From positions 89,086-153,085 of the forward strand of contig CAWJHF010000009.1 in assembly GCA_963842445.1 (NCBI GenBank): a stretch of 64,000 nucleotides of DNA, in the 5' to 3' direction. This document shows, one piece after another, positions 42,761 through 63,370 of this stretch (within the stretch, counting starts at the first letter, position 1; every line of letters begins with the position of its first letter). Made by a program: the position numbers and the translations under genes. Source of the stretch: an uncultured Verrucomicrobiae bacterium (GTDB lineage Bacteria; Verrucomicrobiota; Verrucomicrobiia; Limisphaerales; UBA11358). A model generated the notes under the pieces. It made no database searches. It was not told the origin of the DNA and worked only from the letters and a program-made list of their open reading frames with translations.

Positions 42761-44874
42761 GTTGTCGGCGTTCATCGCTGGCATCCTTATCCTGTGCTGC
42801 CTGCCGGTCGCATCGTCGGCTTCGGTGGCCACGAATCTGGCGAATTCGGATTGCTTGGATTGCCATACCGATCCTTCCAACACCCGGAAAGTGGATGGCA
42901 AAATTGTCCCGCTTGCAGTTTTTCCCACCAACAGCTTCGCCCGGTCTGTCCATTCCATGCTCGATTGCACGGACTGTCACACCGGCGTCAAGGAACTCGT
43001 CCACGGTCGCCAAACTGCCGCCGCCGGATTGCACCGGCTGCCATGAAAAGGAGGGAAAGGATTATGCGGCCAGCATCCACGGCGTGAGCCACGCGCTCGG
43101 CGCGTCCGGGGCCGCCAATTGCTGGGACTGCCACGGTTCGCATGACATCCTGCCGGTCAAGGACCCGACATCGCCGGTCTTCAAACTCAACCTTCCCAAA
43201 ACGTGTGCCAAATGCCACAACAACCCGGCCTTGACGCGGGAGTACGAGATGAAACATCCCGAGGCGGCGGCGCAATACCTCGACAGCATCCACGGCCGCG
43301 CTTTGCTCAAGATGGGACTCATCGTCGCTCCGTCTTGCAACGACTGCCACGGCACGCACGACATCAAACGGTCTGTGGACCGCGACTCGCCCATCAACCA
43401 TGCCAACGTCGCCAGAACCTGCGGCAAATGTCACGTCGGCATCGAGGAAACCTACAACCAAAGCGTTCACGGGCAGTTGCTGGCCAGGGGCGATTCGCGC
43501 GGACCCGTCTGCACGGATTGCCATACCGCGCATGACATCGAAAATCCCGAAGGCAACAACTTCAAGGCCATCAGCGACGCGCGCTGCGGCAAATGCCACG
43601 CTGACCGGCTGGAACATTATCGCGACACGTACCACGGCAAGGCCATGGCCCTGGGCAAACCCAACGCCGCGCCTGCCGTTGCCGCCTGCTACGATTGCCA
43701 CGGCCATCACGACATCCTGCCACCCTCCAATCCTGCGTCGCATCTTTCAAAAACCAACATCCTCGCCACCTGCCAGCAATGTCATCCCGGCGCCACCATC
43801 GGCTTCACCGAATACAAGCCGCACGCCAACCCGATGGACAAAAAGAATTATCCCCTGCTCCACCTGGTTTTCATGGGCATGACCGGCCTGCTCATCGGCA
43901 CGTTCGCTTTCTTCGGCCTGCACACCCTCATGTGGCTCGTCCGCGCTATTTATCTTTACCTGCATGATTCAAAGAAGTTCCGCGAAGCGAAAATCGCGAC
44001 GCAGACGGATGGCGAATGGTTCACCCGTTTCATGCCCTTCGAGCGGCTTCTGCATTTCATGGTGGTGACCAGCTTTCTGCTGCTGGTCGTCACCGGCATG
44101 CCTTTGAAGTTCTACTACACCGGCTGGGCCAAGGCGATTTTCGCGGTCATCGGCGGACCGGAAACCGCGCGGACGCTGCACCGGTTCGGCGCGGTGGTGA
44201 CGTTCATGTATTTCGGCCTGCACTTGGCGTCGCTCATCGGCAAGGCGTGGAAAGGCCGCAAATCCGTGCGCGGCGCGGACGGCAAATTCCATTTCAAGCG
44301 TCTCTGGCAGGTGTTGTTCGGGCCTGACTCCATGATGCCGACCCTCCAGGACTGGCGGGATTTCGTCGCGCACAACAAATGGTTCTTCGGTAAGGGTCCC
44401 AAACCGGAGTTCGACCGCTGGACCTATTGGGAAAAATTCGATTACTTCGCCGTGTTCTGGGGTGTAGCCATTATCGGCGCCTCGGGGCTTATCATGTGGT
44501 TCCCGACGTTTTTCACGCGGTTCCTGCCGGGCTGGATCATCAACATCGCCCTGCTGATCCATTCGGACGAGGCGCTGCTGGCCGCCGGCTTCATCTTTTC
44601 CATCCATTTTTTCAACACCCATTTCCGCATCGAGAAATTTCCAATGGACACCGTCATCTTCTCCGGCCGCGTTTCCAAGAACGAGATGCTGCACGAGCGC
44701 AAACGCTGGTACGACCGGCTCGTGGCGACCGGCCGGCTGGACGACCACCGCGTCAAGGACGAATGGTTGCGCTGGAAAAACATCGCGCGGTCGTTCGGCT
44801 ACTTCTTTTTCGGTCTGGGCATCCTGCTGCTGCTGCTGATCATCTACGCCATGTTCACTCGGCTGGCACACTGA
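42720..44874 (+). CDS. Eleven-heme c-type cytochrome fused to a b-type cytochrome membrane domain (CbcL-like 1), with reading frame interrupted near 43005-43010
   Basis: ORF 42720-43046 has a signal peptide plus CLDCH and CTDCH. ORF 42895-44874 has 9 CXXCH motifs plus a 5-6 TM FdnI/HydC-like domain with conserved His. The two frames join colinearly with the paralog at 45061. Confidence 0.75.
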
Positions 44875-45060: not shown

Positions 45061-46735
45061 GTGATGCAGCCCTCGCGATTTCTGTTCATCAGCATCCTGA
45101 TCACGACGCTTGCTCATCCGGCCTTCGCCGGCCTGAAAAACAGCGACTGCATGGATTGTCATTCGGATAACACCCTCGCCATCACCAACGCCGCCGGCCG
45201 GGCCATTTCCCTGTTCGTGGATGAGGCCAGACTCAAGGCTTCCGCCCACAAAACCAACACCTGCGTCAGTTGCCACGCCGACGTCACCGTCAAACATCCC
45301 GACGACAATGTTCCACTCAAGCCCGTCAACTGCGCCACCTGCCACGAACAACAGACCGAAAGTTACAACGCCAGCGTGCATGGACTGGCGGCCAAAGCCG
45401 GACACCGGGACGCGGCCACCTGCCAAGACTGTCACGATTCCCATGAAATCGTCCCGGCGAATCTGCCGGCCTCGCCACTGCATTACTCGCGTTTGGCCCA
45501 GACCTGCGGCGCGTGCCACGACCAGGAAGTCAGGGATTGGGCGATGAGCGTGCATGGCCAAGCGCTGGCAGCGGGCACGCGCGACGCGCCCACCTGCACC
45601 GATTGCCATTCCGAACACAAAATCCAAGCGTTGAAAAACACGTCACCGGAAGTTTCCGCGGAAGTGTGCAGCCGTTGCCACGCCTCGGAACGGCTCAACA
45701 CCAAGTACAATCTGCCGGCTGACCGGGTGAAGACCTTCTTTGAAAGTTATCACGGTCTCGCGGTGCAATACGGTTCGACCGTCGCCGCCAACTGCGGCAG
45801 TTGCCACGGCTACCACAAAATCCTGCCCTCGACCGACCCCCGTTCCACCATCAACAAGGCCCACCTCGTCGAGACTTGCGGCAAATGTCATCCGGGCGCC
45901 GACGAGAAGTTCGCCTCCGGCAAAATCCACGTGGACCTGGCCGCCGGCAACGGCGGGACCGATTTCTCGGCCAAAATCAACCGGTGGGTGCGCCGGGTTT
46001 ATCTGGTCCTCATTTTCGGCACCATCGGCGCCATGTTCATTCACAACGCGCTGTTGTTCCTGCGCAAGGTCGCCGCGCGCTATCGCGTGGCCGTGCGACC
46101 AGTGATGCGGATGAGCCTTGCGCAACGCTGGCAACATTTCGTGCTGGCGGCCAGCTTCATCATCCTCGCTGTCACCGGGTTCGCGTTGAAGTTTCCGGAT
46201 TCGTGGCTCGCGCGGGCGCTCGGTTCCAGCGAACCGTTCCGGCGCTGGACGCATCGCATCGCCGGCATCGTGCTGCTGCTGGTCGGGCTCTGGCATTTGA
46301 TTTACCTGCTCAGCTCGAAGGATGGGCGGCGGCTGGTGTGCGATTTGTTCCCGGTGAAAAAGGACATGGCCGACGTTCTGGGCGCAAATCCGCTATCTGC
46401 TGGGTTGGAGCACCGAGAAGCCGAAGACAGGCCGGTTCGGGTACGCAGAGAAGCTGGAATATTGGGCGGTGATTTGGGGCACCATCATCATGGGCGTGAC
46501 CGGGCTGGCGATCTGGTTCAAGCTGGACGTGACCCGGTTCCTGCCGCGCTGGGCCGTGGATGTGGCATTGACCATTCATTACTACGAAGCTGTGCTCGCC
46601 TGCCTGGCGATAATCGTGTGGCATTTCTACCACGTCATCTTCGACCCGGACGTTTACCCGCTGAACCCAGCCTGCTGGGACGGCCACGTGTCGGAAGAAT
46701 GGCAAAAGCACGAGCATCCGCTCAATAATCACTGA
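45061..46735 (+). CDS. Nine-heme c-type cytochrome fused to a b-type cytochrome membrane domain (CbcL-like 2), with reading frame interrupted at about 46375
   Basis: Signal peptide. CMDCH, CVSCH, CATCH, CQDCH, CGACH, CTDCH, CSRCH, CGSCH, CGKCH. TM domain begins in frame 1, but after 46375 the sensible sequence (FWAQIRYLLGW...EYWAVIWGTIIMGV...) lies in another frame ending at 46735. Confidence 0.75.
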
Positions 46736-47748: not shown

Positions 47749-47803
47749 TCAACTATAGTCGAAAGACAATCAAGCCTGTTCTTGGTATCAACTATAGACG
47801 AAA
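47749..47803. promoter_or_regulatory. Two copies of a 16-nt box between the divergent methyltransferase and nuclease genes (C-box-like operator candidate)
   Basis: TCAACTATAGTCGAAA (47749-47764) and TCAACTATAGACGAAA (47788-47803). The core ACTATAGT is palindromic. Confidence 0.55.
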
Positions 47804-48720: not shown

Positions 48721-50648
48721 CTAGCCAGCGCTCGCGCCGGTTTGAAAACTGCGCCACAAATTTACCGGCAACAGGCCAAGGAGGATGAGGCTGACCTGGG
48801 TGGCGATAAAGAGCATCAGCCATTTGAACGCCGCGTCGGTGAATCCGTAGCTATGCAGGCCGATGCCAAGCATGTTCACGCCGAACCATGACCAACTCGT
48901 GACGATGTTGCCAAACACGGCCAAGTTCATCAGGCCGCGTTCACGCACGAGACCGCCCCAGCGCGCGTGCAGAATGGTCGCATTCCAGAGCACGATGAGC
49001 AGCGCGCCGTTTTCCTTCGGTCCCAGCCCCAGAACCGGCCCCACGATTGGTCGGCCCAGATGCCGCCCAGCACCGTGCCGACAAAGCTGAACAACGTGGC
49101 AAAACAGACGATGCCATAAACCATCCGCGCCAGTGATTTGGCGGTTTCCGCCGAAAGCGTGGTGGTGAACACGCCACGCAGGATGTAGATGATGGCCAGA
49201 AAACCCGCCACAAAGGTCGAGGCGTAGCCGAGGGTGACGGTGACAACGTGGGTGGCGAGCCAGAAATTCGTGTCGAGCACGGCGCGCATCATTTCCATGG
49301 TGTCGCCGCCCAACGCCAGGTTGTGCGCAATGATCTGTGTGACGAAACCGACAAACGCGGCGACGACGCAGCCGATGCCGTCGTGATAAATTTTCTCGAG
49401 GACCATTCCGAGGATGACCGCGGCCCAGCCGATGAAAATGGCCGAGGAATAAAGGTTGGTCACCGGCGGCCGGCCTTCGAGATACATTCTAAAAACGAGG
49501 CCGAAGGTGTGAATCACCCACGCCAAGATCACGAGATAAAACGCCGAACGCCGGAGCCAGTCGGACAGGTTAAACCAAGAGAGCAACGCCAGCACCAGGG
49601 CGAGTACGTAGATGACCGTGGCCTTGTAGAACGGCTGGAGGGTGCTGAAAAAACACTCCTTGTTCGCCTTGCGCACCTGCGGCGCGAAACGATCGGCCAG
49701 CCACGCGTGGTATTCACCGACCAAGCGGTTGAAATCATCCGGCAACCCGGAACGATAGGCGGTGACCATCGCGGCATAATATTTGGTCGCCGGGTTGAGT
49801 TCGCCCGTGCGCGCGGTCTGCATGAGGTTGGTGCCGATATTCTGCCAGGCGTCGCGCGGCAGGCCGGGATCCACGGGCGGAATGGTCAGCGGCAAAGCAA
49901 AACGCGCGACGGTCTCATAGTTGCCCATGAAACCGAGGAGGGTGTTGAAGGCGTTCTGGTCGAATTTCTGGCCGGCGTCACGGGCATTCACGGCGGCGAT
50001 GCCCGGCGCGATGCTCTTCTGGTAGGCGTCCAGTTCCGCCGCAAAATCATCCGAAGCCGGTGGTTTGAGGCTGACTTCGAGCCGCTGGTACAGATTCATC
50101 ATCTCGTACAGTTTCATCAACTGCGATTCGAAGACGGTACGTTTGGAAGCATCAATCGGGTCGATGCGGGCAGCCTGCTTTTCGATTTCATCTGCCTGCG
50201 GTCGGAGTTGGTTAAAGGAATAATATCGCTGACCGTCGGTTAACTTGAGCAATTCGGTCACCTCGTTGTTATCGATGCGAAAAACTTTCAGGTCATCGGC
50301 TTGCTCGGGTTTCATCATCATTTCCAACAACCATTCCGTGGCAGAGAGCGTATTGGTTGTGACCCACCATTCATCGTTGGATGCTTTCGGCACATCGAAC
50401 AATGTGGCAAAGATTCTATTTGCACCGGTGAGCCGCCGCGCTTCCTGAACGGCGACCGTGGATTTGGTGCGGATTTGGAGCAACGAATTGCGGGCGATGG
50501 AATCGAACGGCTGGAACCGGCCATTCATGAGCACGGGCAGGCGGCCAAATTCGCGGACGTGAAAATCGGTTTCGGGCGGCTGGCGCAATCCGGACAAAGC
50601 CCAGACCGCCATCACCACGACCAGAATGAGGGGAATCCACCTTTTCAT
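48721..50648 (-). CDS. ccsA: System II cytochrome c biogenesis protein CcsA/ResC with N-terminal periplasmic extension, with reading frame interrupted near 49017
   Basis: The Trp-rich heme-handling motif is split: WADQSWGRFWGWD ends frame 1, and PKENGALLIVLWNATILHARWGG continues in ORF 48721-49044. Confidence 0.8.
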
Positions 50649-50799: not shown

Positions 50800-52044
50800 T
50801 CATGACTTCTTTTTCTCCTTTCCGGGAGCGCCGGGGTCACGCCGGCCGGACAGGTTCACACGAACACCGCTGGCCACCGGCGGAACGGCGGCAGGTGCCG
50901 GAACGACGATGCGTCGTTTCAAAAAAGGAATCAAGTGGCTGAGGAACTGGATGACCAAGCCGGTCGCCACGAGTACACACGAGAAATAGGGAGTGAGCCA
51001 GCTTGGATTATGCACCACCTGCAACACGCTGCCGTGGTCGTCGGGGTCGAAGCTGGCCTGATAAAACGTTTCACCGGCGTAACGCAGCGGGTTGTTCATG
51101 AAAATCCGTACTTCACGGTCCTCGCCGTTCTCCAGGTTTTGCAACCGGACACGGCTGGAGAAATTTTTGGGGATGTCGGTGCCGGGATATTTGTCGTGCC
51201 GGAATTCGATGAGATGGAGGCTGAACGGCAGGTAATAACGTTCCTGTCGCAGCAACAATTCATAGGAACGGTTGTTGTAGGTGAACGCTTGCGGCTGGTC
51301 CAGCCAGGCAGAAACGAGGAACGTGCCCAGCGAGCCTTGCGGGGTGGTGATTTCGACGGTGGCCGACGGCATATCGAGCCGGTTCATTTCGGTTTCGCGC
51401 GGGACTTCGCGCCACCAGATGCCAGAACCAAGGCCGGTGGTGGTTTTGACCGGCTCATAACCCGGCTGGGACTGCTGTTCGAGCAACGAATTGGCGTAAA
51501 AGGTTTTCACCCGCGCACGGAACGGCATTTCCGGGTCGCCCACTTCGCCGTGCCGGACGAGCAGGCTGCAGGGGATGGCGACGACCTTGTCCGAGTCCGG
51601 ATCGATCGTGTCGATGACGGCCAGTTCGTAGGCGCGTTCGGCCTCGGAGTAATTTTTTGTCTCGCCGATGCGCAGGTGCAGGGCGCTTTCCCGGGACAGG
51701 AAATCTGTGAGCATCTGCCCGACCAGCAACAGCACGACGCCAAGATGAATCAGCAGAATGCCGATTTTTCGTTTGCCAGGCTGATAATAGCGGAAGTGCG
51801 CGACGAACAGGTTGATGAGCAGCACGGTGCCGATGAAGTAACCGCCGGGAAAGATGGGAATGTGGAAACTGGAGCCGTCTGGTGTCCAATAGACGAAAAA
51901 GCTGCGGAAAAATTCGTTCTGGGCCTTGAAGAGGCCGAGATGCACCTGGGCGATGGTGCCCCAGAATACAATCACGCAGCCGAGCGCCAGGCACGTGACG
52001 GTGAGCTTGAGCGAGGAAAAAAAACGGTATAAGCTCGCGAGCAT
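50800..52044 (-). CDS. ccsB: System II cytochrome c biogenesis protein CcsB/ResB
   Basis: N-terminal FFSSLKLTVTCLALGCVIVFWGTIAQ, large periplasmic loop, C-terminal TM helix, His residues in ResB-like positions. Confidence 0.8.
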   Translation of the reverse strand: MLASLYRFFSSLKLTVTCLALGCVIVFWGTIAQVHLGLFKAQNEFFRSFFVYWTPDGSSFHIPIFPGGYFIGTVLLINLFVAHFRYYQPGKRKIGILLIHLGVVLLLVGQMLTDFLSRESALHLRIGETKNYSEAERAYELAVIDTIDPDSDKVVAIPCSLLVRHGEVGDPEMPFRARVKTFYANSLLEQQSQPGYEPVKTTTGLGSGIWWREVPRETEMNRLDMPSATVEITTPQGSLGTFLVSAWLDQPQAFTYNNRSYELLLRQERYYLPFSLHLIEFRHDKYPGTDIPKNFSSRVRLQNLENGEDREVRIFMNNPLRYAGETFYQASFDPDDHGSVLQVVHNPSWLTPYFSCVLVATGLVIQFLSHLIPFLKRRIVVPAPAAVPPVASGVRVNLSGRRDPGAPGKEKKKS

Positions 52045-52045
52045 T

Positions 52046-53263
52046 TCAATATTTCACGCCTTGGACGAATTGAGTGAACGCGGCCTTCTGGCTTTCGACG
52101 ACTCTGGGGTCGCCCATGAGCTTGTAAAACCACGTCTGGTCGGATTGAGGAACGACCACGCCCACAAGCCGGGTGGGCAGGCCGGTGCGTGCATCCGTGC
52201 CACTCAGGTCCACCAGCGACGCCTTGCCGACCGCCACGTCAATCGTTGTGACCGATTGATTCACTTCGGCTTCGGACCACGGGACCAGGCCAAGCTGGCC
52301 GCGCCAGCGGTTGATGTTGCCAATCAAACCACCACCTTCACCGGCAGCACTGCTGACGTTGACAGCGGCGGTGGCCCCGCCATCGCCGGTGAGCATGAAT
52401 TTGGCGACGAGGAATTGTCCGCCGGAAACCTCCTGCCAGCCAGCCGGCACCTGCCAGTTCGGCTTGCCTTCACTTGAAATCGGGGCGGCGGCCAGAGACG
52501 CCCCCACGCTCGTGTCGCCGATGGCCGGATGCCCCGGCGGTAAAGCGGTCTGCGTCGGCGCGGCGGTGAAATTCAGCGATTTGAGGAAGGCGACGAACGC
52601 TGGTTTTTGTTGTTCAACCAAGCCAGCGTCACCAGTCATTTTGAAAAACCAGGCCATGTCGTTACGATGCTGAATCACACCCAGAATACGTTCCGCGCCA
52701 CCGCTGCCCGGGTTTTGACCGGCGATGTCGTAGAGCTGCGCGGGCTGGCCGGCGGCTTCAACGTCTTCAGCGGATTTTTTCAGTTCTTCCGGCGACACGG
52801 GTGATAATCCAACCTGGCCGCGCCAGCGGTTGACATTGGCTGCGTCGCTGCCGGCCAAGCCGGGCAGGGGAATAACACTGACGTCGGCTGATTTGCCGTC
52901 CGCGCCGGTCACTTTGAATGACGCCACGCGCATTTCACTGGGCGGGATCTCGGTCCACCCGTCCGGCGTTTTCCAGGTCAACTGCGGCAGGGCGGATGCC
53001 GCAGGTAGCGCGGCCGCGGATGCGGACGAGATGTCCGGATGCCCCGGCGGCAACGACGGGTTGGGCGAATCGGTGGGCAGGGCGGGTGCGGTTTGCTGCT
53101 GTGGCTGGTCCTGGTCCTTGGCGACGCGATAAACCTTGACTTCATCGCGGTGGCAACCGGCGGCGAGGAACAAGAACGGGACCAGGACAGAGAGCCGCCA
53201 AAGGGGTTGAGGAAGCCGCTGCACGAGAGTGGCCGTGAACTTTTTAATCGGATTTCTTTTCAC
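52046..53263 (-). CDS. Lipoprotein with internally duplicated domain (function unknown)
   Basis: Lipobox LFLAAGC. Two homologous halves, each starting LPPGHP(D/A)I and containing (V/I)NRWRGQ(V/L)GL. Stop is 1 nt before the ccsB start. Confidence 0.65.
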   Translation of the reverse strand: MKRNPIKKFTATLVQRLPQPLWRLSVLVPFLFLAAGCHRDEVKVYRVAKDQDQPQQQTAPALPTDSPNPSLPPGHPDISSASAAALPAASALPQLTWKTPDGWTEIPPSEMRVASFKVTGADGKSADVSVIPLPGLAGSDAANVNRWRGQVGLSPVSPEELKKSAEDVEAAGQPAQLYDIAGQNPGSGGAERILGVIQHRNDMAWFFKMTGDAGLVEQQKPAFVAFLKSLNFTAAPTQTALPPGHPAIGDTSVGASLAAAPISSEGKPNWQVPAGWQEVSGGQFLVAKFMLTGDGGATAAVNVSSAAGEGGGLIGNINRWRGQLGLVPWSEAEVNQSVTTIDVAVGKASLVDLSGTDARTGLPTRLVGVVVPQSDQTWFYKLMGDPRVVESQKAAFTQFVQGVKY

Positions 53264-53385: not shown

Positions 53386-55527
53386 TTAAAATCGGTATTG
53401 GAGGCTGGCAAAGATGACGTGGGCATCGTAATTGAAGTTGCCGCCGGACGCCGCATCTTCGTAGTGGGCGAACGCGTATTTCAGGTTGAGACGCAGGTTT
53501 TTGGTGATCCGGCGGGAGAGTGCCGCAGTAACGCTGTGTTCCTCGTTATCGGTTCCGAGCGGCACGCCGTCAACAATGTTGTTCTGGCCGTCGGCGGCGC
53601 GGTAATAAAAGTAACCGATGTTCAAATCGGTTTTGTCGTCCAGCACGAAATCCGAGTTGAAATTGATCGTCCAGTAATTGTTTTGCGAGTTGAGGACGGA
53701 CTGGGTCAGAATGGAGCCGGGGGTTGGCGGTGTCTCCGTGGTGCTGCGGACATAATTGAATCCGGCCTGCAGGCCAAGCCAGTTCAACGGCGTCCAGCTC
53801 GCGTTCTGGCCGATGATGTGGGTGTACATTTTCGAGGAATCCACTTCGCTCAAGCCGGACGCGGGGTCGGGCCGCGTATTGATGGTGGAGTACTGATATT
53901 CGTAGCGGCTGACGAGCGTGATGTTTTTCGGCAGGCGCAGCGTCAGGCGGATATTGCCGTCCCAAGTTTGAAATCCCTGATACACAATAAACCCGGGATA
54001 CAACGGGTTATCGGGGCCGGCATTGTTCGGCGTGCTGTCCTGCGTGAAGTTGTAGGTGTAGGTGTTGATTTTATAATAGCCGCCGACATCGAGGCTGGCC
54101 TGTCGGACGGGATACCACCGGGCGCTGGCAAAATATTTTTGGAAAAGACGCGAATCGTCGGTCGCGAATTGCACCGGATTGGGACCGATGCCATTTACTT
54201 GGAGCAGACCCCCGTTTTCGTACAGATTTCCCTGTCCCTCCGTCCATTGGCCGCCGGCGTTGAAGACCCAGTTGGTCATGGCGGTGTAGCGCAGGTCCAA
54301 GCGTTCACACACGTCGAGGGAATCGCGTCCGCTGTTGGACAAGATGTTGTCTTGCGTGTCAGTGTTCAAGGTGCCGGTGACGACGGAATCGGCATTCCAA
54401 TCCTCCCTTTGCACCCGGATCGAAGGGCTTATGGTAAAAGTCTTCGTCGGCAGCGACATGAGGTTGACGTTCAGGACATACTGGTGCTCGTGGGCAACGC
54501 CGTTGAGATTGACGTAGCCATAATCAAGGCCAGGGTAAGCCGGTGAATAAACCACGTCAAAATCATCTCCATAAATCCGGCTGCCGGTGAAGGTGTCGTC
54601 CAGATTGGCAAACATGAATCCGGCGGACAGGAACAGGTTGTTTTTGATCCAGCTTTCGGCGAAGGCATGGGTGCTCAACATGTCGTAGGACGTGCCCTCT
54701 TGATCAGTGACTTTTTGCTGAATGGGTTCCCCCGACCAGAAGGTCAACTCGTGGGCGTCATTCAAATCACCTGTCTCATAGCTTACCCCCACCCCGTAAT
54801 TCACTTTCTTGTAATGATGAGTCAGATCGAGTTGGAACGTGTCGGACGTTTCATCAATGCTGTAAATTCCCGGATACACCGCGTAGATATTCCCGCTGCT
54901 GGGATCATGGACCGGTCCCCAGAGGGTCGAGCTTTCATCGCCATTCCGGTAGCTGTGACTGTATTTGAAGGTGATTTGCGGAAGGTCTGGTTTGGTCAGC
55001 CCGGCCTCGAAGGTAATCAGGCCGCGGTCCAGTGCCAGCGCGTCGCCCGGCAGCGCATACGAAAGCTGCGCGTCGGGGATGTATCCTCCGGTGCCAGAAT
55101 CCCAGGTGCGGAAATTCTCAAAGTGGACGCGGACAAAACCCAGATCATCGCGAACCAAGCCGAGGCCGACGCTGTAATCGTGATCATCAAAAATGGAGTG
55201 TCCGTCCAACGTGAAAGTGGTCTTCTTGGCCACCTGATCTTCGTAGTGCAGGTCCTCGATGCCGCCAAAGACCCCCGTGTTGAGTTGTTTCCCTTGGACC
55301 GCCTGGTTCGCGTAACCCTGCGTCAACATGGCGCCGGAGGAAAGCTCGATCCAGTTGCTGTAACTGTTGGTGCCGCCTTCATACGACTGTTGCGGGGTGA
55401 TGGCGTCACCCGCCCGTGCCGCTGGTGCGCCGAGGACGACCAAGGACGCGCCGATGACATATCGGCCGAGGCCGGGTTTTCGCCGTCCGGCGCGAAGCAG
55501 TTTTGACTTTCGATATTTCTTTTTCAT
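53386..55527 (-). CDS. Large outer-membrane beta-barrel protein (porin component candidate, MtrB/PioB-like in size and context)
   Basis: Signal peptide ending APAARAGD, 713 aa of alternating amphipathic strands rich in Y/G/N/T/D, C-terminal ASLQYRF. Confidence 0.7.
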   Translation of the reverse strand: MKKKYRKSKLLRAGRRKPGLGRYVIGASLVVLGAPAARAGDAITPQQSYEGGTNSYSNWIELSSGAMLTQGYANQAVQGKQLNTGVFGGIEDLHYEDQVAKKTTFTLDGHSIFDDHDYSVGLGLVRDDLGFVRVHFENFRTWDSGTGGYIPDAQLSYALPGDALALDRGLITFEAGLTKPDLPQITFKYSHSYRNGDESSTLWGPVHDPSSGNIYAVYPGIYSIDETSDTFQLDLTHHYKKVNYGVGVSYETGDLNDAHELTFWSGEPIQQKVTDQEGTSYDMLSTHAFAESWIKNNLFLSAGFMFANLDDTFTGSRIYGDDFDVVYSPAYPGLDYGYVNLNGVAHEHQYVLNVNLMSLPTKTFTISPSIRVQREDWNADSVVTGTLNTDTQDNILSNSGRDSLDVCERLDLRYTAMTNWVFNAGGQWTEGQGNLYENGGLLQVNGIGPNPVQFATDDSRLFQKYFASARWYPVRQASLDVGGYYKINTYTYNFTQDSTPNNAGPDNPLYPGFIVYQGFQTWDGNIRLTLRLPKNITLVSRYEYQYSTINTRPDPASGLSEVDSSKMYTHIIGQNASWTPLNWLGLQAGFNYVRSTTETPPTPGSILTQSVLNSQNNYWTINFNSDFVLDDKTDLNIGYFYYRAADGQNNIVDGVPLGTDNEEHSVTAALSRRITKNLRLNLKYAFAHYEDAASGGNFNYDAHVIFASLQYRF

Positions 55528-55545
55528 CGGCTGCCGGGGCGTTGG

Positions 55546-56406
55546 TTAAAATCTGAGGGACGGACTCACACGGGAGCCGTGAACCGCCTCGTGACAACCG
55601 GCGCTCCAGCAGGCGCCCTGGCTCAAGCGGCTGTCGTGTGGAACGCCGCCAATATAAATGCCTCCATTTTTGTACTGCTGGAAATGGCATTTCAAACACA
55701 GGTTCGCATTGCGTTCGGTGAGCATTTTGGCGTTGACGCTGCCGTGCGGGGAATGACAGGTGGTGCAGCCTTCGCGCAGGGCTTCGTGTTCAAAGACAAA
55801 TGGCCCCTGCTGGGAAGGATGGCATTGGACGCAGTTTTCCTCCTGCGAAAGCAACTGGGTGCTGCCGCCAGCAAAGGCGATGCCCTTGTGCGGGGGATGG
55901 CATAGGATGCAAGTCATTCGTCCTTCGGGCACAGGATGGTGGTTGGGCAGATTGAACTGGCCGCGCACGTCCATGTGACATTGGTAACAGGCCGTCTCGA
56001 TCTTGCGCGCCGGGTCGAGCGGGAACCGCCCACTCAGCCCCTCCGGCTGCGGCCGACCGGCGGTGAAGCTGTAAGGCGGTTTAACATCGCCGCCCGAATC
56101 CTCATGCAAACTGCAAGGGCCGTGGCAGGATTCGCAACCGGCATCGAGCCCGTTTTTGCCCCGGGCGATGAGCCGCGCGTGGTCGGCGGTCTTGAAGCTG
56201 CGGCAGATTTCGTCGTGGCATTGTTCGCAGTCCGCGGAGCCGACGTACTTTGCACCCGGCACGTCCGGGAGCACCACCGCCTGGCGGCTGATGGTGCTGC
56301 AGGAAATAACTGCCAACAGCACAACAACCACGCCGGCCACCAGCGCCAGGTTTCGGCCACGCCACCCACGCCGCGGTAGCAGTTTGATGAAAGAAAATTT
56401 TGTCAT
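55546..56406 (-). CDS. Eight-heme c-type cytochrome (7 CXXCH + 1 CX4CH), lipobox-like signal
   Basis: VLLAVISC leader. CEQCH, CESCH, CYQCH, CILCH, CVQCH, CTTCH, CLKCH and CWSAGCH. Confidence 0.85.
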   Translation of the reverse strand: MTKFSFIKLLPRRGWRGRNLALVAGVVVVLLAVISCSTISRQAVVLPDVPGAKYVGSADCEQCHDEICRSFKTADHARLIARGKNGLDAGCESCHGPCSLHEDSGGDVKPPYSFTAGRPQPEGLSGRFPLDPARKIETACYQCHMDVRGQFNLPNHHPVPEGRMTCILCHPPHKGIAFAGGSTQLLSQEENCVQCHPSQQGPFVFEHEALREGCTTCHSPHGSVNAKMLTERNANLCLKCHFQQYKNGGIYIGGVPHDSRLSQGACWSAGCHEAVHGSRVSPSLRF

Positions 56407-56472
56407 GCGGATTTTTAGTTGTCGGTCATTTCACGCATATTCGGAAAACGCGCCGTTGTCGTGGCCTGCCGC

Positions 56473-58191
56473 TCATGGGTCTAATTCCTGGCCGATCAAG
56501 TTTTCAGCCGCGGACAACAGGTTAAGGGTAAAAATCCAATTGTGCGCGCCGAGGCTGCCGTCATTGACCACGAGATACAAATCGAACCGGGCCTTTTTGA
56601 TGTTGTCCGGGATCAGGGCCTGGCCGGCGGCGTTAGGCCCGCTGGAATTCACCTGGTCTGCCAACGTCCAACTGGTCACGTACCCCGCCGAGTTGGTCTG
56701 CCAGACCAATCCGCCCGGTGTCGTGTATTCCCAGATGACGGTCCCGTTGGTCCGCAACGCCGCCGGCGCCTGGGTGGCAGCCCACTGGTTCAATTCGTCA
56801 ATTACCAGGGAAACATCGTCGGAGACGCCAGGCGCCGATTGTCCGGGGTCAGTGAGATGACAGTTCATGCAGACATCGTGGGAAGCCACTTCGAACGTGT
56901 GGCTGAGAGTGTTGGCCGGCGGGGCGTCCGGTTGCATATGGCAGGACACGCATTGATTGGTCAGATAAAACGTGCCGTTCGTGGAGTACTTGGCGGAATC
57001 CGGCAGTCCCGCGTGCGTACCGGGATTGAAAATGGCCGGGCTGTCTGTCACGCCATTCCACAATTGCCCGACGGAACCGAGCAGGAAGTCGTACTGCAGC
57101 GAACGATGCGGCGCATAGGAGGTGTCCGTCCACGCGGCCCCGCGGGAGTTATGACACTGGCCGCAGAGATTGATGTTCGTGTTCGCCGCGTATTTGTTCG
57201 TAAACACGTCCGTGGGGGAGAGTGAAAAATAGTTGGTCGAGAAGATGGGATTGCGGAGCTGCGCCGGATTGGAATTGGTCTGGTGTGGATCGTGACAAAC
57301 GGCGCAGGTGATGGCGACGTCCAAGTCGTTCGTGAGCGTGAGGGGATTCTGACCGTTGATCAAGGCGAGCCGGACGGAGCCGGAATGACATTGGCCGCAA
57401 CTGCTGATGTTGTTGGTGGACGCACTTATGACCTGCAGCGCATCCGGCACCACGGTGGCATGGTCGCTGGTGTTCCATTCCTCGTAAGTAGGCTGCATGG
57501 GTCCGGTGTGGCAGCCGCCGCAAACGGTGGCGGCGATTTCCACGCGCGGGACCACCGTAGGGTCATCCTCGCTGGCCGCATGATTGGCCGCTGGCCCGTG
57601 ACAATTTTCACACTGCACCCCCGCCAGGTTGGTGGCGTAGGAAAAAACTCCGTTCTTGTTGGTGAAACTGAACCCGGTTGGCAAACCATAGCCAACCGTG
57701 TGGCAGGGCAGGCACGAACTGTTGGTCTGGCCGCCGGCGGCCTTGAACGCCGGGCTGCTGAAGGCGCTGGCGTGGAGCGTGTTTGTCTCGTACTGGCAGA
57801 TGCTCAAATGACACGTGAGGCAGACCTTCAAGCCGGCATAGTTCGGCGCCGGACCAGAGACGCGGAAGAAGGCATTGCTGTAGAGCTTTGTGATGACGGC
57901 GTAGCGGACCAGATTGGTAGCCTTGCCCAGCGTCATCCACGGGGCCAGCAAGCTGTTGCTTTTCTGATAGACCTGATAATAACCGGAGGGGCCGTCCCAA
58001 GTGACCTGCACGCCGTTGGTCAACTGTTCAATCCCGCCCATGACCGGCATTCCCGGCATCCCTCCCGGCTGGGTGGTGCCCAAGTGTTGGACCGATTGGG
58101 CCATCAGGGACGATGCAGTGAAAAGAATGCCCGCCGTCAGAATCAACCATGGCCTCTGGTTGGACGGCAAAGCCCTGACGCGGTTCATCAT
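56473..58191 (-). CDS. Nine-heme c-type cytochrome with N-terminal beta-sandwich domain
   Basis: ATG at 58191, signal peptide ...SSLMAQS. CLTCH, CLPCH, CENCH, CGGCH, CGQCH, CAVCH, CGQCH, CVSCH, CMNCH. Confidence 0.85.
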   Translation of the reverse strand: MMNRVRALPSNQRPWLILTAGILFTASSLMAQSVQHLGTTQPGGMPGMPVMGGIEQLTNGVQVTWDGPSGYYQVYQKSNSLLAPWMTLGKATNLVRYAVITKLYSNAFFRVSGPAPNYAGLKVCLTCHLSICQYETNTLHASAFSSPAFKAAGGQTNSSCLPCHTVGYGLPTGFSFTNKNGVFSYATNLAGVQCENCHGPAANHAASEDDPTVVPRVEIAATVCGGCHTGPMQPTYEEWNTSDHATVVPDALQVISASTNNISSCGQCHSGSVRLALINGQNPLTLTNDLDVAITCAVCHDPHQTNSNPAQLRNPIFSTNYFSLSPTDVFTNKYAANTNINLCGQCHNSRGAAWTDTSYAPHRSLQYDFLLGSVGQLWNGVTDSPAIFNPGTHAGLPDSAKYSTNGTFYLTNQCVSCHMQPDAPPANTLSHTFEVASHDVCMNCHLTDPGQSAPGVSDDVSLVIDELNQWAATQAPAALRTNGTVIWEYTTPGGLVWQTNSAGYVTSWTLADQVNSSGPNAAGQALIPDNIKKARFDLYLVVNDGSLGAHNWIFTLNLLSAAENLIGQELDP

Positions 58192-58459: not shown

Positions 58460-59416
58460 ATGCCCGAAGAATGGAACCAAAATGAGAAACGCCACATAAT
58501 GAAATCTGCCTCCCCCAACACCCCACCGGCAACCGACCCACAGACCGTAAGACCATCCGGTTGGCGTCCCCTGATTCTGGTGCCGGTTTTTTTCCTGTTG
58601 GGAGCCGCATTGACCGGCGTCTGGTTTAAATACGGCAAACCCGCAACGGGTTCCATGCTGCCGGAACAGGAACTTTCCGGCCAGACCGTGAATCTTCTGC
58701 ACCATTTGAATTCACCGGTGGAACTCCGGTTTTATTCGGTGCTCCCGCCGGGCAGTGCCCTGGAACCGCTTCAGGATTTTTCCCGGCGGGTGGACCATTT
58801 GCTGTCCGAATTTCAAAACGCAAATGACGGTCAAATCCACGTGATCCGGAACCTCTCAACTTCGGGAGCCAATGCGGACGCCGCCGCGGCTGACGGCATC
58901 CATCCTTTCAATCTGGACAAGGGCGAGGCTTGTTTTCTGGGAATCACCGTCGCCAGCGGGGGGCGGAAGGAATCGCTGTCCCAGATCCAGCCCGAATGGG
59001 AACCGGCGCTGCCGTTTGACCTGGCCCGCGCGATCCTTCAGGTGACCGCCACGCCGTCATCGCCCGTCGTCAAGGCAAGTCCCCCGGTTTCCCCCGAAAC
59101 CACCAATGAAATCCTGCGCCTGATTCCCGATGTCAATGGCACGTCACTGGAGGACGGAATCGGAATTTTACGCCAGGCCGCCGTGGACAAATTCAGCGAG
59201 GCCGGAGCCGAAATGGAGAAGCAGATTCAGGCCGCGCAACAACAAGCCAGCGACGCGCAAAACGGCGGGCCGGGGGCGGGGCAGCAGGCCGCGATGAAAC
59301 ATCTCCAGCAGGTCCAGTTGGACCAGGCGGAAAAACTCAAACAAATCGCCGCTCAACTGCAGGCCCAGATTTCCGCCTTCGAGCAGATGAAAGCCGCGCC
59401 TCCCGCCACAAAATAA
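58460..59416 (+). CDS. Membrane-anchored protein with GldG-like (ABC auxiliary) N-domain and Gln-rich coiled-coil tail
   Basis: One TM helix (LILVPVFFLLGAALTGVWF). Segment VELRFYSVLPPGS...DFSRRVDHLLSEF resembles the GldG family. Assignment is tentative. Confidence 0.45.
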   Translation: MPEEWNQNEKRHIMKSASPNTPPATDPQTVRPSGWRPLILVPVFFLLGAALTGVWFKYGKPATGSMLPEQELSGQTVNLLHHLNSPVELRFYSVLPPGSALEPLQDFSRRVDHLLSEFQNANDGQIHVIRNLSTSGANADAAAADGIHPFNLDKGEACFLGITVASGGRKESLSQIQPEWEPALPFDLARAILQVTATPSSPVVKASPPVSPETTNEILRLIPDVNGTSLEDGIGILRQAAVDKFSEAGAEMEKQIQAAQQQASDAQNGGPGAGQQAAMKHLQQVQLDQAEKLKQIAAQLQAQISAFEQMKAAPPATK

Positions 59417-59646: not shown

Positions 59647-62013
59647 TTACGGCGTGTGCACCACGCGGAAAAACATCTGCGGCTCGTTCCGCGTCGGGGT
59701 CAGGTAACTGATGGAACCACCGGTGCCGGGAATATTGGTGCTGATGTTCAGCCAGCCACCAGTCAGAGCCGAGACACCCTGGATCTGATAAGTGGTGTTG
59801 ATCTGCGTGTCGAAGGCGATTTCCGCCGCCGTGTAGATGGCGACGGTGTTGGTAGCACCGTTGACCATGTTGTTGCCATCGAAATAGATCACACCGCTGC
59901 CCGTCACCGTGAAGGCACCGAACGGATTGAGACCCAAGGTGCACATCATCCAGTTTGGGACACCGGCGCTGTTGTTGACAGCGTTGGGGCCGGCCGCAGT
60001 GTTAGTGGCAAAGCCGGCGCCGAAGTAAGCTTCCTGCCAGGCATCGGGCAGACCGTCGTTGTTGGCGTCACCGGTCAAATTGCCAATGGAAGCCTTGAGC
60101 AGGCCGACTGCGTAGGGCGCGTTGTGAATGCCCAAGCTTCCGTCATTGCTGACGAACTGCCAGTTGTAGGCAGCTTCCAGAAATTGCGTCGGCCAGTTGG
60201 TCTGGGTTGTAATGGACGACTGGACCACGCCGGCCGCAACATAGTTGTTTGCATTCGCCTCGTAATTCGTAGGAGGCAGGAGAGTGGACAGCTTGTTGAG
60301 CAGGAGTTGGACCTGGGTCTGAACACCCAGGCTGTAGCCAACACCAACGTAATCGGGAACCAGCATGTCAAAGTTGGTGATGGCACCATGGCATTGGGTG
60401 CAGACATAGGTCACGTCAACGTTGACGCCCTGGCTGTTGGTGTAACTCATCATGGTGGAATGGCCGCCGGCCAGGGTGAACGCCGGATCGGTGGAAGCTA
60501 TCGGCTGATAATGGCAACCAACGCAGGTGTTGGACACCACGTTGGCGTGGGGAGCGCTCGGAATCACCTGGCCGTAGGTCACGGCATTAATGCCCTCCAG
60601 CATATCGCCTTGCGGGCTGTCATGCGGACCAAAAGCGGACCCGCCATTCCACGTCGGTTGGGAGAGCGCATAATTCACAATGCTGTTGCTGAACGAACCG
60701 TTGCGGCTGTTGTGGCAGTTCATGCAGAAACCACCAAGACCGGCATTGGTGACCACAAAGCCGGTATTCCCATTAAACGCGACAGTGGTGCTGGTGCGCA
60801 GTTGATGCGGGTTGGAGGCGTCGTGGGGATTGTGGCAGGTCTGACAGTTGATCGCTTCGTAAACCACATTGGTGACGTAAGCATTGGTGTTGCCCAGATT
60901 GGCGACGTAATTAATAAAGCCGGGAGCCGTATGGCAACGAACACAGGCTATGCGGCTGGCGGAACCGGAAGGCGTCCGGGTCGTGACGGCGTGCAGTGAA
61001 TTGTACCATTCGGCGGCGTAGTAATAGTTGGTCAGGCTGTCATGGCATTGGGCGCAATCACCTGCGTTATAGCTGATGGCGATGGCATTGGTATTTCCCA
61101 CAATGCCCTGCGAATACAGATGCTGGCTGCCGGGGCCATGGCAGTTTTCGCACTGGATATTGGCCAGGTTTTGCAATTGCGGCGGCATTGCGGCCCAGTT
61201 GCTGTTGGTCAGCGCGGTCGGGAAAGTCCAGTTCAGCAGCGTTGCCAGGTCGTCAAAACCGCCGTTGTTGGCGAATGAGTTGGTGTCATAACCAACAGTG
61301 TGACACACAATGCAACTTGCGCTGTAATTGCTGCTCTCCAAGCCATTAATGGCACGGGTGAAGAATGTGGCATGGGGCGTATTGGTCCAAGTGGGGTAAA
61401 TGTCGGGCACACCCACCAAGCCGCCGCTGTGACAGTCGGCGCAAGCAGCAATGCCCAGATAAGTGGCCGCCGTAACGGTGATGGCGATATTTGTCGTGGC
61501 CGGGGCGATGGTGTTCGTCCCGTTTTTACCCGTCGTGGTGATCGTAGCTTGGACAGTGTATTGTCCGACGACATCCGGGCGGAAAAAGGTCCGGCCCGCC
61601 AGTTGGGATACCAAAGCGCCGGATTGGGTATTGTTGGGTATTAAACGGTCTGCCGGGTTGTAAAGCGGCACATTGGTGCCCAGCGGACTGTTGGTCAGCA
61701 CCGCCAGCGAACCCAGAGGCTTGTTGGTCAGCGGCCACCAAGTGACGCTAAGAATGTTCGAAGGCGCAATGGAGTTGTTCACCAAGGCGTCAAGATAGAC
61801 CGGCTCGCCCACGCCGACATTATTAATGCCGGCGGAAACCTGGGCATTGGTCAACCCATACGCCGAGATTTCATTCGGGGTGAGGGGACGCTGTTCGACC
61901 TGGCCATTTAGTGCGGTCGTCGCCGCGTTGACGGTGGTCACAGCTCCGACAAACGTCAATGCCACTGCCGCAAGGCCGGCAAACATCTTCGATGGGGGAT
62001 GGTGTGCTTTCAT
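59647..62013 (-). CDS. Nine-heme c-type cytochrome, 788 aa, with Ig-like N-domain and C-terminal beta-sandwich
   Basis: Signal peptide. CADCH, CIVCH, CENCH, CAQCH, CVRCH, CQTCH, CMNCH, CVGCH, CTQCH. GDANNDGLPDAWQ calcium-binding-like motif. Confidence 0.85.
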   Translation of the reverse strand: MKAHHPPSKMFAGLAAVALTFVGAVTTVNAATTALNGQVEQRPLTPNEISAYGLTNAQVSAGINNVGVGEPVYLDALVNNSIAPSNILSVTWWPLTNKPLGSLAVLTNSPLGTNVPLYNPADRLIPNNTQSGALVSQLAGRTFFRPDVVGQYTVQATITTTGKNGTNTIAPATTNIAITVTAATYLGIAACADCHSGGLVGVPDIYPTWTNTPHATFFTRAINGLESSNYSASCIVCHTVGYDTNSFANNGGFDDLATLLNWTFPTALTNSNWAAMPPQLQNLANIQCENCHGPGSQHLYSQGIVGNTNAIAISYNAGDCAQCHDSLTNYYYAAEWYNSLHAVTTRTPSGSASRIACVRCHTAPGFINYVANLGNTNAYVTNVVYEAINCQTCHNPHDASNPHQLRTSTTVAFNGNTGFVVTNAGLGGFCMNCHNSRNGSFSNSIVNYALSQPTWNGGSAFGPHDSPQGDMLEGINAVTYGQVIPSAPHANVVSNTCVGCHYQPIASTDPAFTLAGGHSTMMSYTNSQGVNVDVTYVCTQCHGAITNFDMLVPDYVGVGYSLGVQTQVQLLLNKLSTLLPPTNYEANANNYVAAGVVQSSITTQTNWPTQFLEAAYNWQFVSNDGSLGIHNAPYAVGLLKASIGNLTGDANNDGLPDAWQEAYFGAGFATNTAAGPNAVNNSAGVPNWMMCTLGLNPFGAFTVTGSGVIYFDGNNMVNGATNTVAIYTAAEIAFDTQINTTYQIQGVSALTGGWLNISTNIPGTGGSISYLTPTRNEPQMFFRVVHTP

Positions 62014-62083: not shown

Positions 62084-63160
62084 TCATATCGTCACCTCGC
62101 ACAAGGTCCAGCGCGGCACCAATTCCACGTCGGCAAGCGACCAGGCAATAGACGGCAGATTCAATTTCACCAGCAATCCTGCTGCGCGCCGGGTGATGAT
62201 TTCGTTGCACTTGGAAAGCTCCTGCTCCCGCACCCGGGAATTCTCGCGGACAATCGCTTCCAGGTGGTCAATGTTATAGAGGTAAACGTTTTCCAGTTCC
62301 TCCACGTCCGGGGCGATGTCCCGCGGCACGGCGATGTCCACCAGGATAAGCGGCCGGTTCGAGCGCGCCGCAAGGATGCCGGCAATCTCATGCTTGTGGA
62401 GAACCGTCGTTGGGCTGCCGGTGGAACTCACCACAATGTCGGCTTCGACGATGGCGGCCATGCGTTCCTCAAACGACAACGCGCGTCCGCCGAGTTCTGC
62501 GGCCAGCGATTGGGCGCGTTCGAGGGAGCGGTTGGCCACCAGCACCGACCGGGTGCCACGTTTGGCCAGATGACGGACACAAGCCTCGCCCATCTTGCCC
62601 GCGCCCAGGATCATCACCGTCTTGTCGGACAAATCGCCGGAAAAGATCTTCTCGGCCAGCTCGACAGCCACGCGCCCAACGGAAGTCGCGCCACGGCCTA
62701 TGCCCGTGTGCGTGCGGACCTCCTTGGCCACCTGCAGCGCGGTTTGAAACCACCGGTTCAGCACGCGGCCGGTCAACCCGAATTGTTGCGCCGCTTGATA
62801 CGCATTTTTGACCTGGCCGGTGATTTCCGTTTCACCAATCACCATTGAATCCAAGCCGCTGGCGACCGAGAACAGATGCTCCACCGCAGCGGCGCCTTCC
62901 TTGACGTAAACATAAGGCGTCACATCCAGCTCAGGACAGAGCTGTTGAAAAATGCGAAACACCCGGCCCTGGATCCAGGCTGACGTCGCGCCATACACCT
63001 CGACGCGGTTGCAGGTGGAAAGCAGCACGACTTCATCCAGGCCGGCGCCGAGCTTGAGCCGGCAGCCGTAGCATGGCAGCAGCGAGGGTCGCACCGCCAG
63101 CTTTTCGCGCACCTCCACCGGCGCGGTTTTGTAACTCAAACCTGTGACAAACACCTTCAT
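62084..63160 (-). CDS. hemA: Glutamyl-tRNA reductase
   Basis: ATG at 63160. LSTCNRVEVYG active-site motif and NADPH motif VMILGAGKMGE. Confidence 0.9.
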   Translation of the reverse strand: MKVFVTGLSYKTAPVEVREKLAVRPSLLPCYGCRLKLGAGLDEVVLLSTCNRVEVYGATSAWIQGRVFRIFQQLCPELDVTPYVYVKEGAAAVEHLFSVASGLDSMVIGETEITGQVKNAYQAAQQFGLTGRVLNRWFQTALQVAKEVRTHTGIGRGATSVGRVAVELAEKIFSGDLSDKTVMILGAGKMGEACVRHLAKRGTRSVLVANRSLERAQSLAAELGGRALSFEERMAAIVEADIVVSSTGSPTTVLHKHEIAGILAARSNRPLILVDIAVPRDIAPDVEELENVYLYNIDHLEAIVRENSRVREQELSKCNEIITRRAAGLLVKLNLPSIAWSLADVELVPRWTLCEVTI

Positions 63161-63370
63161 GTCCCCGCCCTCCCTGAGGATTCGACGCCGCAGCGCACCG
63201 GCGCGGGGGAAACGAGCCACCGGAGGCGCATCTCGCGCCTTCCACCGATGCGGCCAAGCCGGTCAAGGCCACATCGAAGCTCGCCTTTTAGATTCACGGG
63301 ATAACTCTAGGGCGCGGGGCAAAAGTTGCTGCCCATCCATTGGCAACCGTTTTACATTTATTGTCATTAG

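Follow-up and report, generated by a model that had tools for sequence, protein, structure and literature searches.

Introduction

Do three consecutive genes of an uncultured Verrucomicrobiae bacterium, which encode two multiheme cytochromes and an outer-membrane beta-barrel, form an electron conduit of the MtrCAB kind, and if so, is it a relative of MtrCAB or a separate invention? The question is raised by a stretch of 64,000 nucleotides (contig CAWJHF010000009.1 of GenBank assembly GCA_963842445.1, positions 89,086 to 153,085 of the forward strand), hereafter called the window. A preliminary description of this DNA, made from the letters and the translated open reading frames (ORFs) only, had read the three genes as a porin-cytochrome conduit, and this reading was supported by the homology of the small cytochrome to MtrA/DmsE and by the remote homology of the barrel to MtrB/PioB. 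We consider it likely that the genes encode an Mtr-type outer-membrane electron conduit of a peat or soil Verrucomicrobium close to Limisphaerales.

Results and Discussion

Organization of the Three-Gene Cluster

The cytochrome-cytochrome-barrel triad consists of three consecutive ORFs on the minus strand of the window (53386-58191), as established from the ORF translations and from motif counts. In the direction of reading, the first gene (56473..58191, minus strand) encodes a c-type cytochrome of 572 amino acids (aa) with nine CXXCH motifs and a Sec signal, the proposed electron-donating partner at the outer surface side. The second (55546..56406, minus strand) encodes a 286-aa octaheme cytochrome of the MtrA/DmsE family, a predicted lipoprotein proposed to be the heme wire inside the barrel. 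The third (53386..55527, minus strand) encodes the 713-aa outer-membrane beta-barrel, a remote MtrB/PioB homologue that would sheathe the octaheme cytochrome. The gaps computed from these coordinates are 66 bp between the two cytochrome genes and 18 bp between the small cytochrome gene and the barrel gene, so that the compact minus-strand run first described was recovered exactly. The arrangement is far beyond chance, because its order recurs in all adequately flanked loci among 80 from different species, and because barrel relatives with only 25-28% identity still have a small MtrA-like gene upstream.

The gene order and sizes had been said to mirror mtrC-mtrA-mtrB. For the 286-aa cytochrome and the barrel this likeness turned out to be one of homology; the 572-aa cytochrome resembles MtrC in position only.

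The Small Cytochrome

The 286-aa cytochrome contains seven CXXCH motifs and one CWSAGCH (CX4CH), which makes eight sites. The eight hemes first attributed to it are therefore reached only when this atypical motif is counted, and a strict count gives seven. The CX4CH motif aligns with the heme-10 motif of MtrA. A search with the DmsE/MtrA family model, proposed in the preliminary description as a check, showed clear homology (TIGR03508, 152.8 bits, E = 1.2e-44, best covering profile positions 117-256), at a score below the curated cut-off for membership of 192.2 bits. The highest-scoring curated NCBIfam model was NF041028, the GSU2203 decaheme family, with 171 bits. The best solved relative was chain A of 6R2Q, which is MtrA (phmmer, E = 3.1e-23).

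Alignment with a bona fide MtrA (Photobacterium sp. DA100) allowed us to position the hemes. Hemes 1-2 of the 286-aa protein correspond to MtrA hemes 1-2, its hemes 3-8 correspond to MtrA hemes 5-10, and MtrA hemes 3-4 are deleted, which leaves eight sites in place of the ten CXXCH motifs of the MtrA/DmsE family. A C-terminal LR[FY] is common to both proteins. As judged from these alignments, the 286-aa cytochrome is a clear MtrA/DmsE homologue lacking MtrA hemes 3-4. Its gene lies immediately upstream of the barrel gene in the window, in all adequately flanked related loci and in the distant relatives.

The lipobox-like leader noted earlier is real (VISC). Both the set of seven plus one motifs and the lipobox cysteine, in the form (A/V)ISC, are invariant in 74/74 full-length orthologues. 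Because of this invariance the 286-aa cytochrome is predicted to be a lipoprotein, unlike MtrA, and the wire would probably be lipid-anchored.

The Barrel and Its Relation to MtrB/PioB

The 713-aa protein has a signal peptide, contains a single cysteine over its whole length and ends in QYRF, in agreement with the YRF terminus reported before. Searches of the sequence libraries returned blanks. No Pfam or NCBIfam model matched the protein at E <= 0.1, the MtrB/PioB models PF11854 and TIGR03509 included, so that the suggested check with TIGR03509 came out negative; equally, none of the substrate-specific porin or export families of these two libraries, a match to which would have spoken against a conduit, was recovered. 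The PDB sequence search gave no match for the single protein or for either of two family profiles, and these profiles were also blank in Pfam and NCBIfam. Among 63 diverse members of the barrel family, four showed sub-threshold matches to PF11854, six weakly matched the GSU2204 family, one gave a weak match to TIGR03016 (E = 0.004) and none matched TIGR03509. The family itself is large, with 909 representatives when clustered at 50% identity (E <= 1e-3).

Such blanks suggested a barrel unrelated to MtrB, an idea that was overturned by profile-profile comparison with controls. The profile of the barrel family was aligned by hhalign with a profile of 34 PF11854 proteins representing MtrB/PioB. 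The two profiles aligned end to end over 608 columns with a probability of 99.5%, E = 1e-22 and a score of 197, to be compared with scores of 57-66 when either profile was reversed. Against single sequences, the barrel profile scored 46.9 with MtrB, 23 with reversed MtrB and 21 with LptD of Escherichia coli, a 26-strand barrel. The mtrCAB locus of Photobacterium sp. DA100 (L086) was used as a reference, with MtrC at 392 bits on TIGR03507, MtrA at 322 bits on TIGR03508 and MtrB at 551 bits on TIGR03509.

The AlphaFold2 model of the barrel, built from 37 homologues, reached a predicted local distance difference test score (pLDDT) of 68.6 and a predicted template modelling score (pTM) of 0.63. 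It contains 26 strands and no plug, which settles the strand count asked for in the preliminary description at the level of a model. With Foldseek, the best match in the PDB was MtrB (6R2Q_B, E = 7.6e-15, template modelling (TM) scores 0.61/0.66), and TonB-dependent receptors stayed at TM scores of about 0.4. Thus, with moderate confidence, the model shows a large unplugged 26-strand barrel such as that of MtrB in 6R2Q. Two other assignments were considered and rejected: a TonB-dependent receptor, on account of the lower TM scores and the absent plug, and a PEP-CTERM outer-membrane protein, as the blank at E <= 0.1 in NCBIfam and Pfam leaves no match of this kind.

An N-terminal CXXC motif is typical of MtrB from metal-reducing Gammaproteobacteria. 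A CxxC near the N-terminus is also seen in the consensus of our MtrB/PioB alignment, and the barrel, with its one cysteine, lacks it. Since the end-to-end profile alignment far outscores its controls, and since the 26-strand model has MtrB as its best PDB match, we describe the barrel as a divergent MtrB/PioB homologue beyond the reach of the curated models, and not as an independent invention. The first reading had left the choice between an independent and a strongly diverged conduit; strong divergence applies to two of the three parts, for which independent invention has to be given up.

The Two Large Nonaheme Cytochromes

The 572-aa cytochrome is a secreted nine-heme protein, as first described. 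Its start is an ATG that is also used by the orthologues, and all nine CXXCH motifs are kept in 64/68 of them. The best PDB matches of its family profile were OcwA (6I5B, 1.5e-17), 6QVM (1.2e-15) and cytochrome c554 (1BVB, 4e-8). No MtrC/OmcA structure was among these matches, and TIGR03507 gave none. The Pfam family PF13435 (Cytochrome_C554) was found at residues 123-199 (6.6e-11), and PF02335 matched weakly. Members of the MtrC/OmcA family are defined by a match to their hidden Markov model, ten hemes and a lipoprotein signal; here the CXXCH motifs number nine and the signal peptide is not followed by a cysteine. A homology to MtrC was nevertheless considered on the basis of a Pfam MtrC-MtrF_II-IV match, and discarded, as this match was weak, based on heme motifs and one among several cytochrome families.

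The nine CXXCH motifs, with a c554-like tetraheme module and an NrfA-like pentaheme module, correspond to what defines the OcwA type. The C-terminal helix with DGSxGxHN aligns with OcwA as well, and the protein is distinguished from OcwA and 6QVM by about 90 additional N-terminal residues that form a beta-sandwich domain. The AlphaFold2 model was too poor to use (pLDDT 42, below 50 in the heme domain); it has long helices at 452-570. On sequence grounds, the 572-aa cytochrome is thus placed in the OcwA/c554/NrfA-type nonaheme group and is not MtrC-like. OcwA has been shown experimentally to be a nonaheme terminal reductase of the cell surface, with one c554-like and one NrfA-like module besides a bundle of C-terminal helices (PMC6703420).

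A second secreted nonaheme cytochrome, of 788 aa, is encoded further upstream (59647..62013, minus strand). It contains nine CXXCH motifs, which are found in 37/41 orthologues, and it is paralogous to the 572-aa protein (28% identity, from tblastn cross-matches), from which it differs by an additional C-terminal domain. Its best PDB match was also OcwA (6I5B, 3.8e-8). Directly past its stop codon lies a GC-rich hairpin of 10 bp with a T-run behind it (59601-59624, minus strand). A scan for promoters and terminators gave overall counts not above chance, and this hairpin was its only convincing result. The presence of such a strong hairpin with a T-run after the stop suggests that the 788-aa gene is transcribed separately from the operon of the 572-aa, 286-aa and barrel genes.

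Conservation Across Genomes

A scan of one genome per species yielded 106 barrel relatives, from which 80 loci were fetched. Most of these loci are named as Verrucomicrobiota, often as Limisphaerales, Pedosphaera or subdivision 3, and a minority come from metagenome-assembled genome (MAG) records named for other phyla. Many originate from peat and soil MAGs; the closest are Verrucomicrobiae/Limisphaerales MAGs, including those of SPRUCE and palsa. Every locus with enough flank keeps the order of a 572-type cytochrome, a 286-type cytochrome and the barrel. Upstream of the triad there are usually a divergent gene with a DUF7088 domain, a 788-type cytochrome gene and hemA, and in the closest relatives a lipoprotein gene, resB and ccsA come after the barrel gene. 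Barrel relatives at 25-28% identity have, directly upstream, a cytochrome of 233-293 aa that is MtrA-like and carries seven CXXCH motifs plus C[WF]SAGCH.

One distant locus has another layout. In L085 (50-7196), a barrel relative with 28% identity and its octaheme partner are preceded by genes for a molybdoenzyme of the dimethyl sulfoxide (DMSO) reductase family, an iron-sulfur (FeS) subunit and a chaperone. Because these molybdoenzyme genes precede the pair, the DmsEFAB-like layout suggests that the pair can serve extracellular enzymes besides cytochromes.

Comparison with Known Systems

As a prediction from genomes, this type of cluster has been published before. He et al. (2017; PMC5615132) reported a porin-multiheme cytochrome cluster in Verrucomicrobia and proposed the same function for it; an eight-heme periplasmic cytochrome goes there with a porin of 20 or more strands and, in many cases, with an extracellular multiheme cytochrome. 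A preprint of May 2026 described "EET4" in Limisphaerales (Fiorito et al., 10.64898/2026.05.27.727921). It comprises an OcwA-like nonaheme cytochrome of 583 aa, the model of which matched 6I5B with a TM score of 0.55, and a 286-aa octaheme MtrA-like cytochrome with seven CXXCH motifs, one CX4CH and a TIGR03508/DmsE domain. The third component is a porin of 736 aa, annotated with TIGR03016 and a CirA COG domain, whose model best matched MtrB. The authors also found the cluster transcribed in situ in peat and obtained models of its multimers as Mtr-like assemblies.

The window fits the description of EET4 feature by feature, and for this reason we regard the cluster type as known: an OcwA-like nonaheme cytochrome, a 286-aa octaheme cytochrome and a barrel (about 700-740 aa) whose closest structural match is MtrB, all within Limisphaerales. 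The clusters of both studies share their gene order, their phylum and their type of habitat with the window, and the gene sizes match EET4. This identification was made by matching descriptions, and not by direct sequence identity to the genes of the representative MAGs.

Our data differ from the preprint in several respects. Its systems were presented as "entirely divergent in sequence" and "convergently evolved", whereas our comparisons show homology of the small cytochrome of the window to MtrA and of the barrel to MtrB. The octaheme protein was predicted to be soluble and periplasmic, whereas the lipobox is conserved in all orthologues examined here. Also, ccm was reported as largely absent and no full maturation system was found in the MAGs, whereas the System II genes resB-ccsA lie directly downstream of the barrel in the window. 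Finally, the recurrent linkage to ImcH-like and CbcL-like genes is an addition to both studies.

MtrCAB of Shewanella (6R2Q) has the same order of outer cytochrome, periplasmic cytochrome and barrel, and the barrel of the window is likewise predicted with 26 strands. In contrast, the wire of the window has eight hemes and not ten, since MtrA hemes 3-4 are deleted, its last motif is CX4CH and it carries a lipobox; the barrel is without the N-terminal CXXC, and the outer cytochrome belongs neither to the MtrC/OmcA family nor to the lipoproteins. This outer cytochrome resembles OcwA of Thermincola potens (6I5B) and the 6QVM protein in its nine CXXCH motifs, its c554-like N-terminal tetraheme module and its C-terminal helical DGSxGxHN region, a likeness read from the sequence. 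Those two proteins, however, belong to Gram-positive cell walls and have no barrel partner, whereas the protein of the window has one. In Geobacter OmbB-OmaB-OmcB, OmaB is likewise an octaheme periplasmic cytochrome with a porin partner, but this porin, OmbB, has been described with roughly 20 strands and without homology to MtrB (PMC6344600). Another pair of Geobacter, GSU2203/GSU2204, was compared through the NCBIfam family models, on which the small cytochrome of the window (GSU2203 family) and the barrel relatives (GSU2204 family) scored well below the cut-offs; from these matches, the pair may be a further relative of the module.

Neighbouring Candidate Genes for Quinol Oxidation

Candidate electron donors to the conduit are encoded on the plus strand, where the ImcH-like and CbcL-like genes lie 7-12 kb from the conduit genes. 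The first encodes an inner-membrane heptaheme cytochrome of 489 aa (41291..42760, plus strand), a candidate quinol oxidase feeding the conduit. It has three N-terminal transmembrane segments, an adjoining CGETCH (CX3CH) at residue 136 and six CXXCH motifs, which corresponds to the definition of ImcH by transmembrane segments and heme motifs (about 490-520 aa; PMC6295460); the assignment was made from these features and not by comparison with GSU3259. Its N-terminus matches NapC/NirT (6e-10). The orthologues are directly downstream of the barrel in L055, L061, L062, L063 and L071, and within 10 kb in many loci. An earlier survey had found no mtrAB next to any imcH (PMC6295460).

The next gene encodes a CbcL-like protein of 659 aa (42895..44874, plus strand) with nine CXXCH motifs and a C-terminal half that matches PF01292 and TIGR01583; its linkage to the barrel was seen in several loci. 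A second CbcL-like gene follows (45061..46735, plus strand), also with nine CXXCH motifs and PF01292. Its reading frame apparently shifts near 46375-46390; the last part of the annotated ORF is arginine-rich nonsense, and the cytochrome b domain resumes in another frame to about 46735. Both genes have the architecture of CbcL/MtoC/MtrH, a multiheme c-type part with a HydC/FdnI-like b-type membrane domain, as assigned from motifs and family models.

Candidate carriers from quinol to the periplasm are encoded in the same direction: two monoheme c-type cytochromes (37371-37715 and 40760-41089, plus strand) and, between their genes, an NrfC-like FeS protein (37996-39060, plus strand) and an NrfD-like membrane protein (39062-40297, plus strand), all recognized by family matches. 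In many loci they, too, are linked to the barrel gene. Overall, inner-membrane cytochrome genes were found within 10 kb of the barrel in about 30/80 loci.

Neighbouring Genes for Cytochrome Maturation and Heme Synthesis

Downstream of the barrel lie a lipoprotein gene and the two genes of System II. The lipoprotein, of 405 aa (52046..53263, minus strand), has a LAAGC lipobox and two repeated domains, and it gave no Pfam, NCBIfam or PHROGs match. It is followed by a ResB/Ccs1-like cytochrome c biogenesis protein (50800..52044, minus strand; Pfam ResB, 3.8e-16), which is syntenic in the closest loci, and by the heme-handling protein CcsA/CcsB (48721..50648, minus strand; PF01578, 3.6e-17; TIGR03144, 9.4e-23). 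The lipoprotein gene travels with resB-ccsA and adjoins these genes even where they are away from the barrel (loci L012, L051 and L077). Because it stays beside them there, the protein may be an accessory factor, not described so far, of cytochrome maturation by System II in Verrucomicrobiota.

In the window, ccsA is split by a deletion of one nucleotide. One C is lost from a CCC run at about 49020, within the conserved heme-handling motif WGxxWxWDPKEN, which results in two overlapping ORFs; the run is CCC in the close relatives L002, L008 and L015. The frameshift is either a homopolymer sequencing error or the mark of a real pseudogene.

On the other side of the triad, a 318-aa membrane protein with a DUF7088 domain (PF23357, 6.3e-8) and a Gln/Ala-rich tail is encoded divergently from the cytochrome operon (58460..59416, plus strand). 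In most of the 80 loci its gene lies between those of the two large cytochromes; the protein had no PHROGs match. Further upstream is hemA, for the glutamyl-tRNA reductase of heme biosynthesis (62084..63220, minus strand), which precedes the 788-aa gene in many loci; GlutR_N was found on the orthologue in L089.

Proposed Electron Route and Its Alternatives

From homology, motif counts, conserved synteny and the 26-strand fold predicted for the barrel, we infer how the conduit might be assembled and localized, in which direction it might work and which acceptor it might serve. Genetic linkage points to ImcH-like or CbcL-like inner-membrane cytochromes as those that would oxidize the quinol pool, after which electrons would cross the periplasm on small cytochromes. 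By homology to MtrAB, the 286-aa octaheme wire, its N-terminus probably lipid-anchored to the inner leaflet of the outer membrane, would be threaded through the 26-strand barrel, so that its heme chain would span the membrane. At the surface, electrons would pass to the 572-aa cytochrome of OcwA/NrfA type, and perhaps also to its 788-aa paralogue, and the final acceptors may be humic or particulate organic matter, Fe(III) or shuttles. The hemes would be attached by the System II proteins ResB and CcsA encoded downstream of the barrel.

This route is supported because a MtrA homologue and a MtrB-like barrel form a pair that is conserved down to 25% barrel identity. It gains further support from the OcwA-like nature of the large cytochrome, the linked ImcH-like and CbcL-like genes, the adjacent System II genes and the agreement with published proposals.

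Several facts weigh on the other side. The small cytochrome and the barrel both fall short of the curated cut-offs of the Mtr family models, and the barrel model is only moderately confident (pLDDT 68.6, pTM 0.63). The 572-aa cytochrome has neither a lipobox nor a recognized route to the surface, so its localization is a prediction. If the frameshift in ccsA is real, this copy could not mature the cytochromes of the genome. The function of the family as a whole is also a prediction, and the direction of electron flow is not readable from sequence.

One alternative is an inward conduit of the same architecture, through which Fe(II) or reduced humics would supply electrons to the cell in the way that has been proposed for MtoAB and PioAB. 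MtrAB homologues work both ways, proteins of the CbcL/MtoC family occur in iron oxidizers and reducers alike (PMC6295460), and monoheme periplasmic cytochromes are encoded nearby. We nevertheless regard inward flow as unlikely. ImcH homologues were previously seen only in Fe(III) reducers and were proposed as quinol oxidases only (PMC6295460). PioAB and MtoAB have no extracellular multiheme partner (PMC6344600), whereas the cluster of the window has one and a paralogue in addition. Also, in an anoxic, humic-rich peat habitat it is electron acceptors that are the limiting need.

The proposed outward conduit could also end in catalysis. According to this alternative, the MtrAB-like pair would feed a surface enzyme in analogy to DmsEFAB, and the OcwA-like cytochromes would mainly reduce soluble extracellular compounds, for example nitrite, hydroxylamine or other oxyanions, and not solids or humics. 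The molybdoenzyme genes beside the barrel relative of L085 are in favour of such a role, and OcwA itself has two hemes with open coordination and reduces nitrite and hydroxylamine (PMC6703420). Its turnover of nitrite is very slow, however, and the main role proposed for it is electron transfer to solids or shuttles (PMC6703420). The His-His motifs located above the open hemes of OcwA are not visible in the 572-aa translation, which is a weak point since heme ligation needs a structure. Taken together, a mainly catalytic role seems a shade less credible still than inward flow.

Inward uptake and this catalytic role are the main rivals, for the idea of an ordinary substrate porin, a TonB-dependent-like transporter or a PEP-CTERM-associated export barrel that merely adjoins periplasmic cytochromes is very improbable and effectively excluded: the TIGR03016 and CirA COG annotation of the EET4 porin and the single weak TIGR03016 match (E = 0.004) among 63 family members are outweighed by the absence of any NCBIfam or Pfam match of the window barrel at E <= 0.1, by the plug-free model with TM scores of 0.61-0.66 to MtrB against about 0.4 to TonB-dependent receptors, by the end-to-end alignment of the family profile with MtrB/PioB, and by the MtrA-like gene directly upstream of the barrel in all adequately flanked loci.

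Wider Significance

On the Mtr-type conduit reading, Limisphaerales-type Verrucomicrobiota, which are abundant in peat, soils and humic lakes, would respire humic or particulate organic matter there, in competition with methanogenesis. A working conduit in such uncultured bacteria would help to explain the excess of CO2 relative to CH4 in bogs, a case that has already been made in the literature. What is refined here is that the A and B parts are divergent Mtr homologues and not convergent ones, as both are true distant homologues by profile and alignment, and that the wire is probably lipid-anchored. The maturation system described as "missing" would be System II within the cluster itself, and the conduit genes are genetically linked to ImcH-like and CbcL-like quinol oxidases. 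Standard annotation pipelines may overlook the barrel family, large as it is, since no curated hidden Markov model exists for it.

We lean slightly towards a broader hypothesis, in which MtrAB-type conduits constitute one ancient and widespread superfamily and the branch of the window, an octaheme lipoprotein with a 26-strand barrel (at least 909 clusters at 50% identity, none of it covered by a Pfam or NCBIfam model of its own), is a large sister family of MtrAB and not the product of convergence put forward in the preprint. The conduit would then be a modular "socket" with varied outer partners, joined on the outside to OcwA-like cytochromes or to molybdoenzymes of the DMSO-reductase type (as in L085), and on the inside to quinol oxidases of the Geobacter type, ImcH and CbcL. 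If this is true, the window would encode a chimeric pathway unseen in any model organism.

Other Features of the Window

Between the second CbcL-like gene and ccsA lie a gene for a DNA methyltransferase (46759-47745, minus strand) and a gene for a 344-aa protein with a helix-turn-helix domain (47665-48699, plus strand). Counterparts of the two genes are missing from all 80 related loci, and the segment 46759-48699 therefore resembles an insertion specific to the strain, which may be a restriction-modification module. Also, the GC content drops to 0.48-0.53 at positions 8000-14000 of the window, from about 0.57-0.59 elsewhere, and this part may be a foreign segment.

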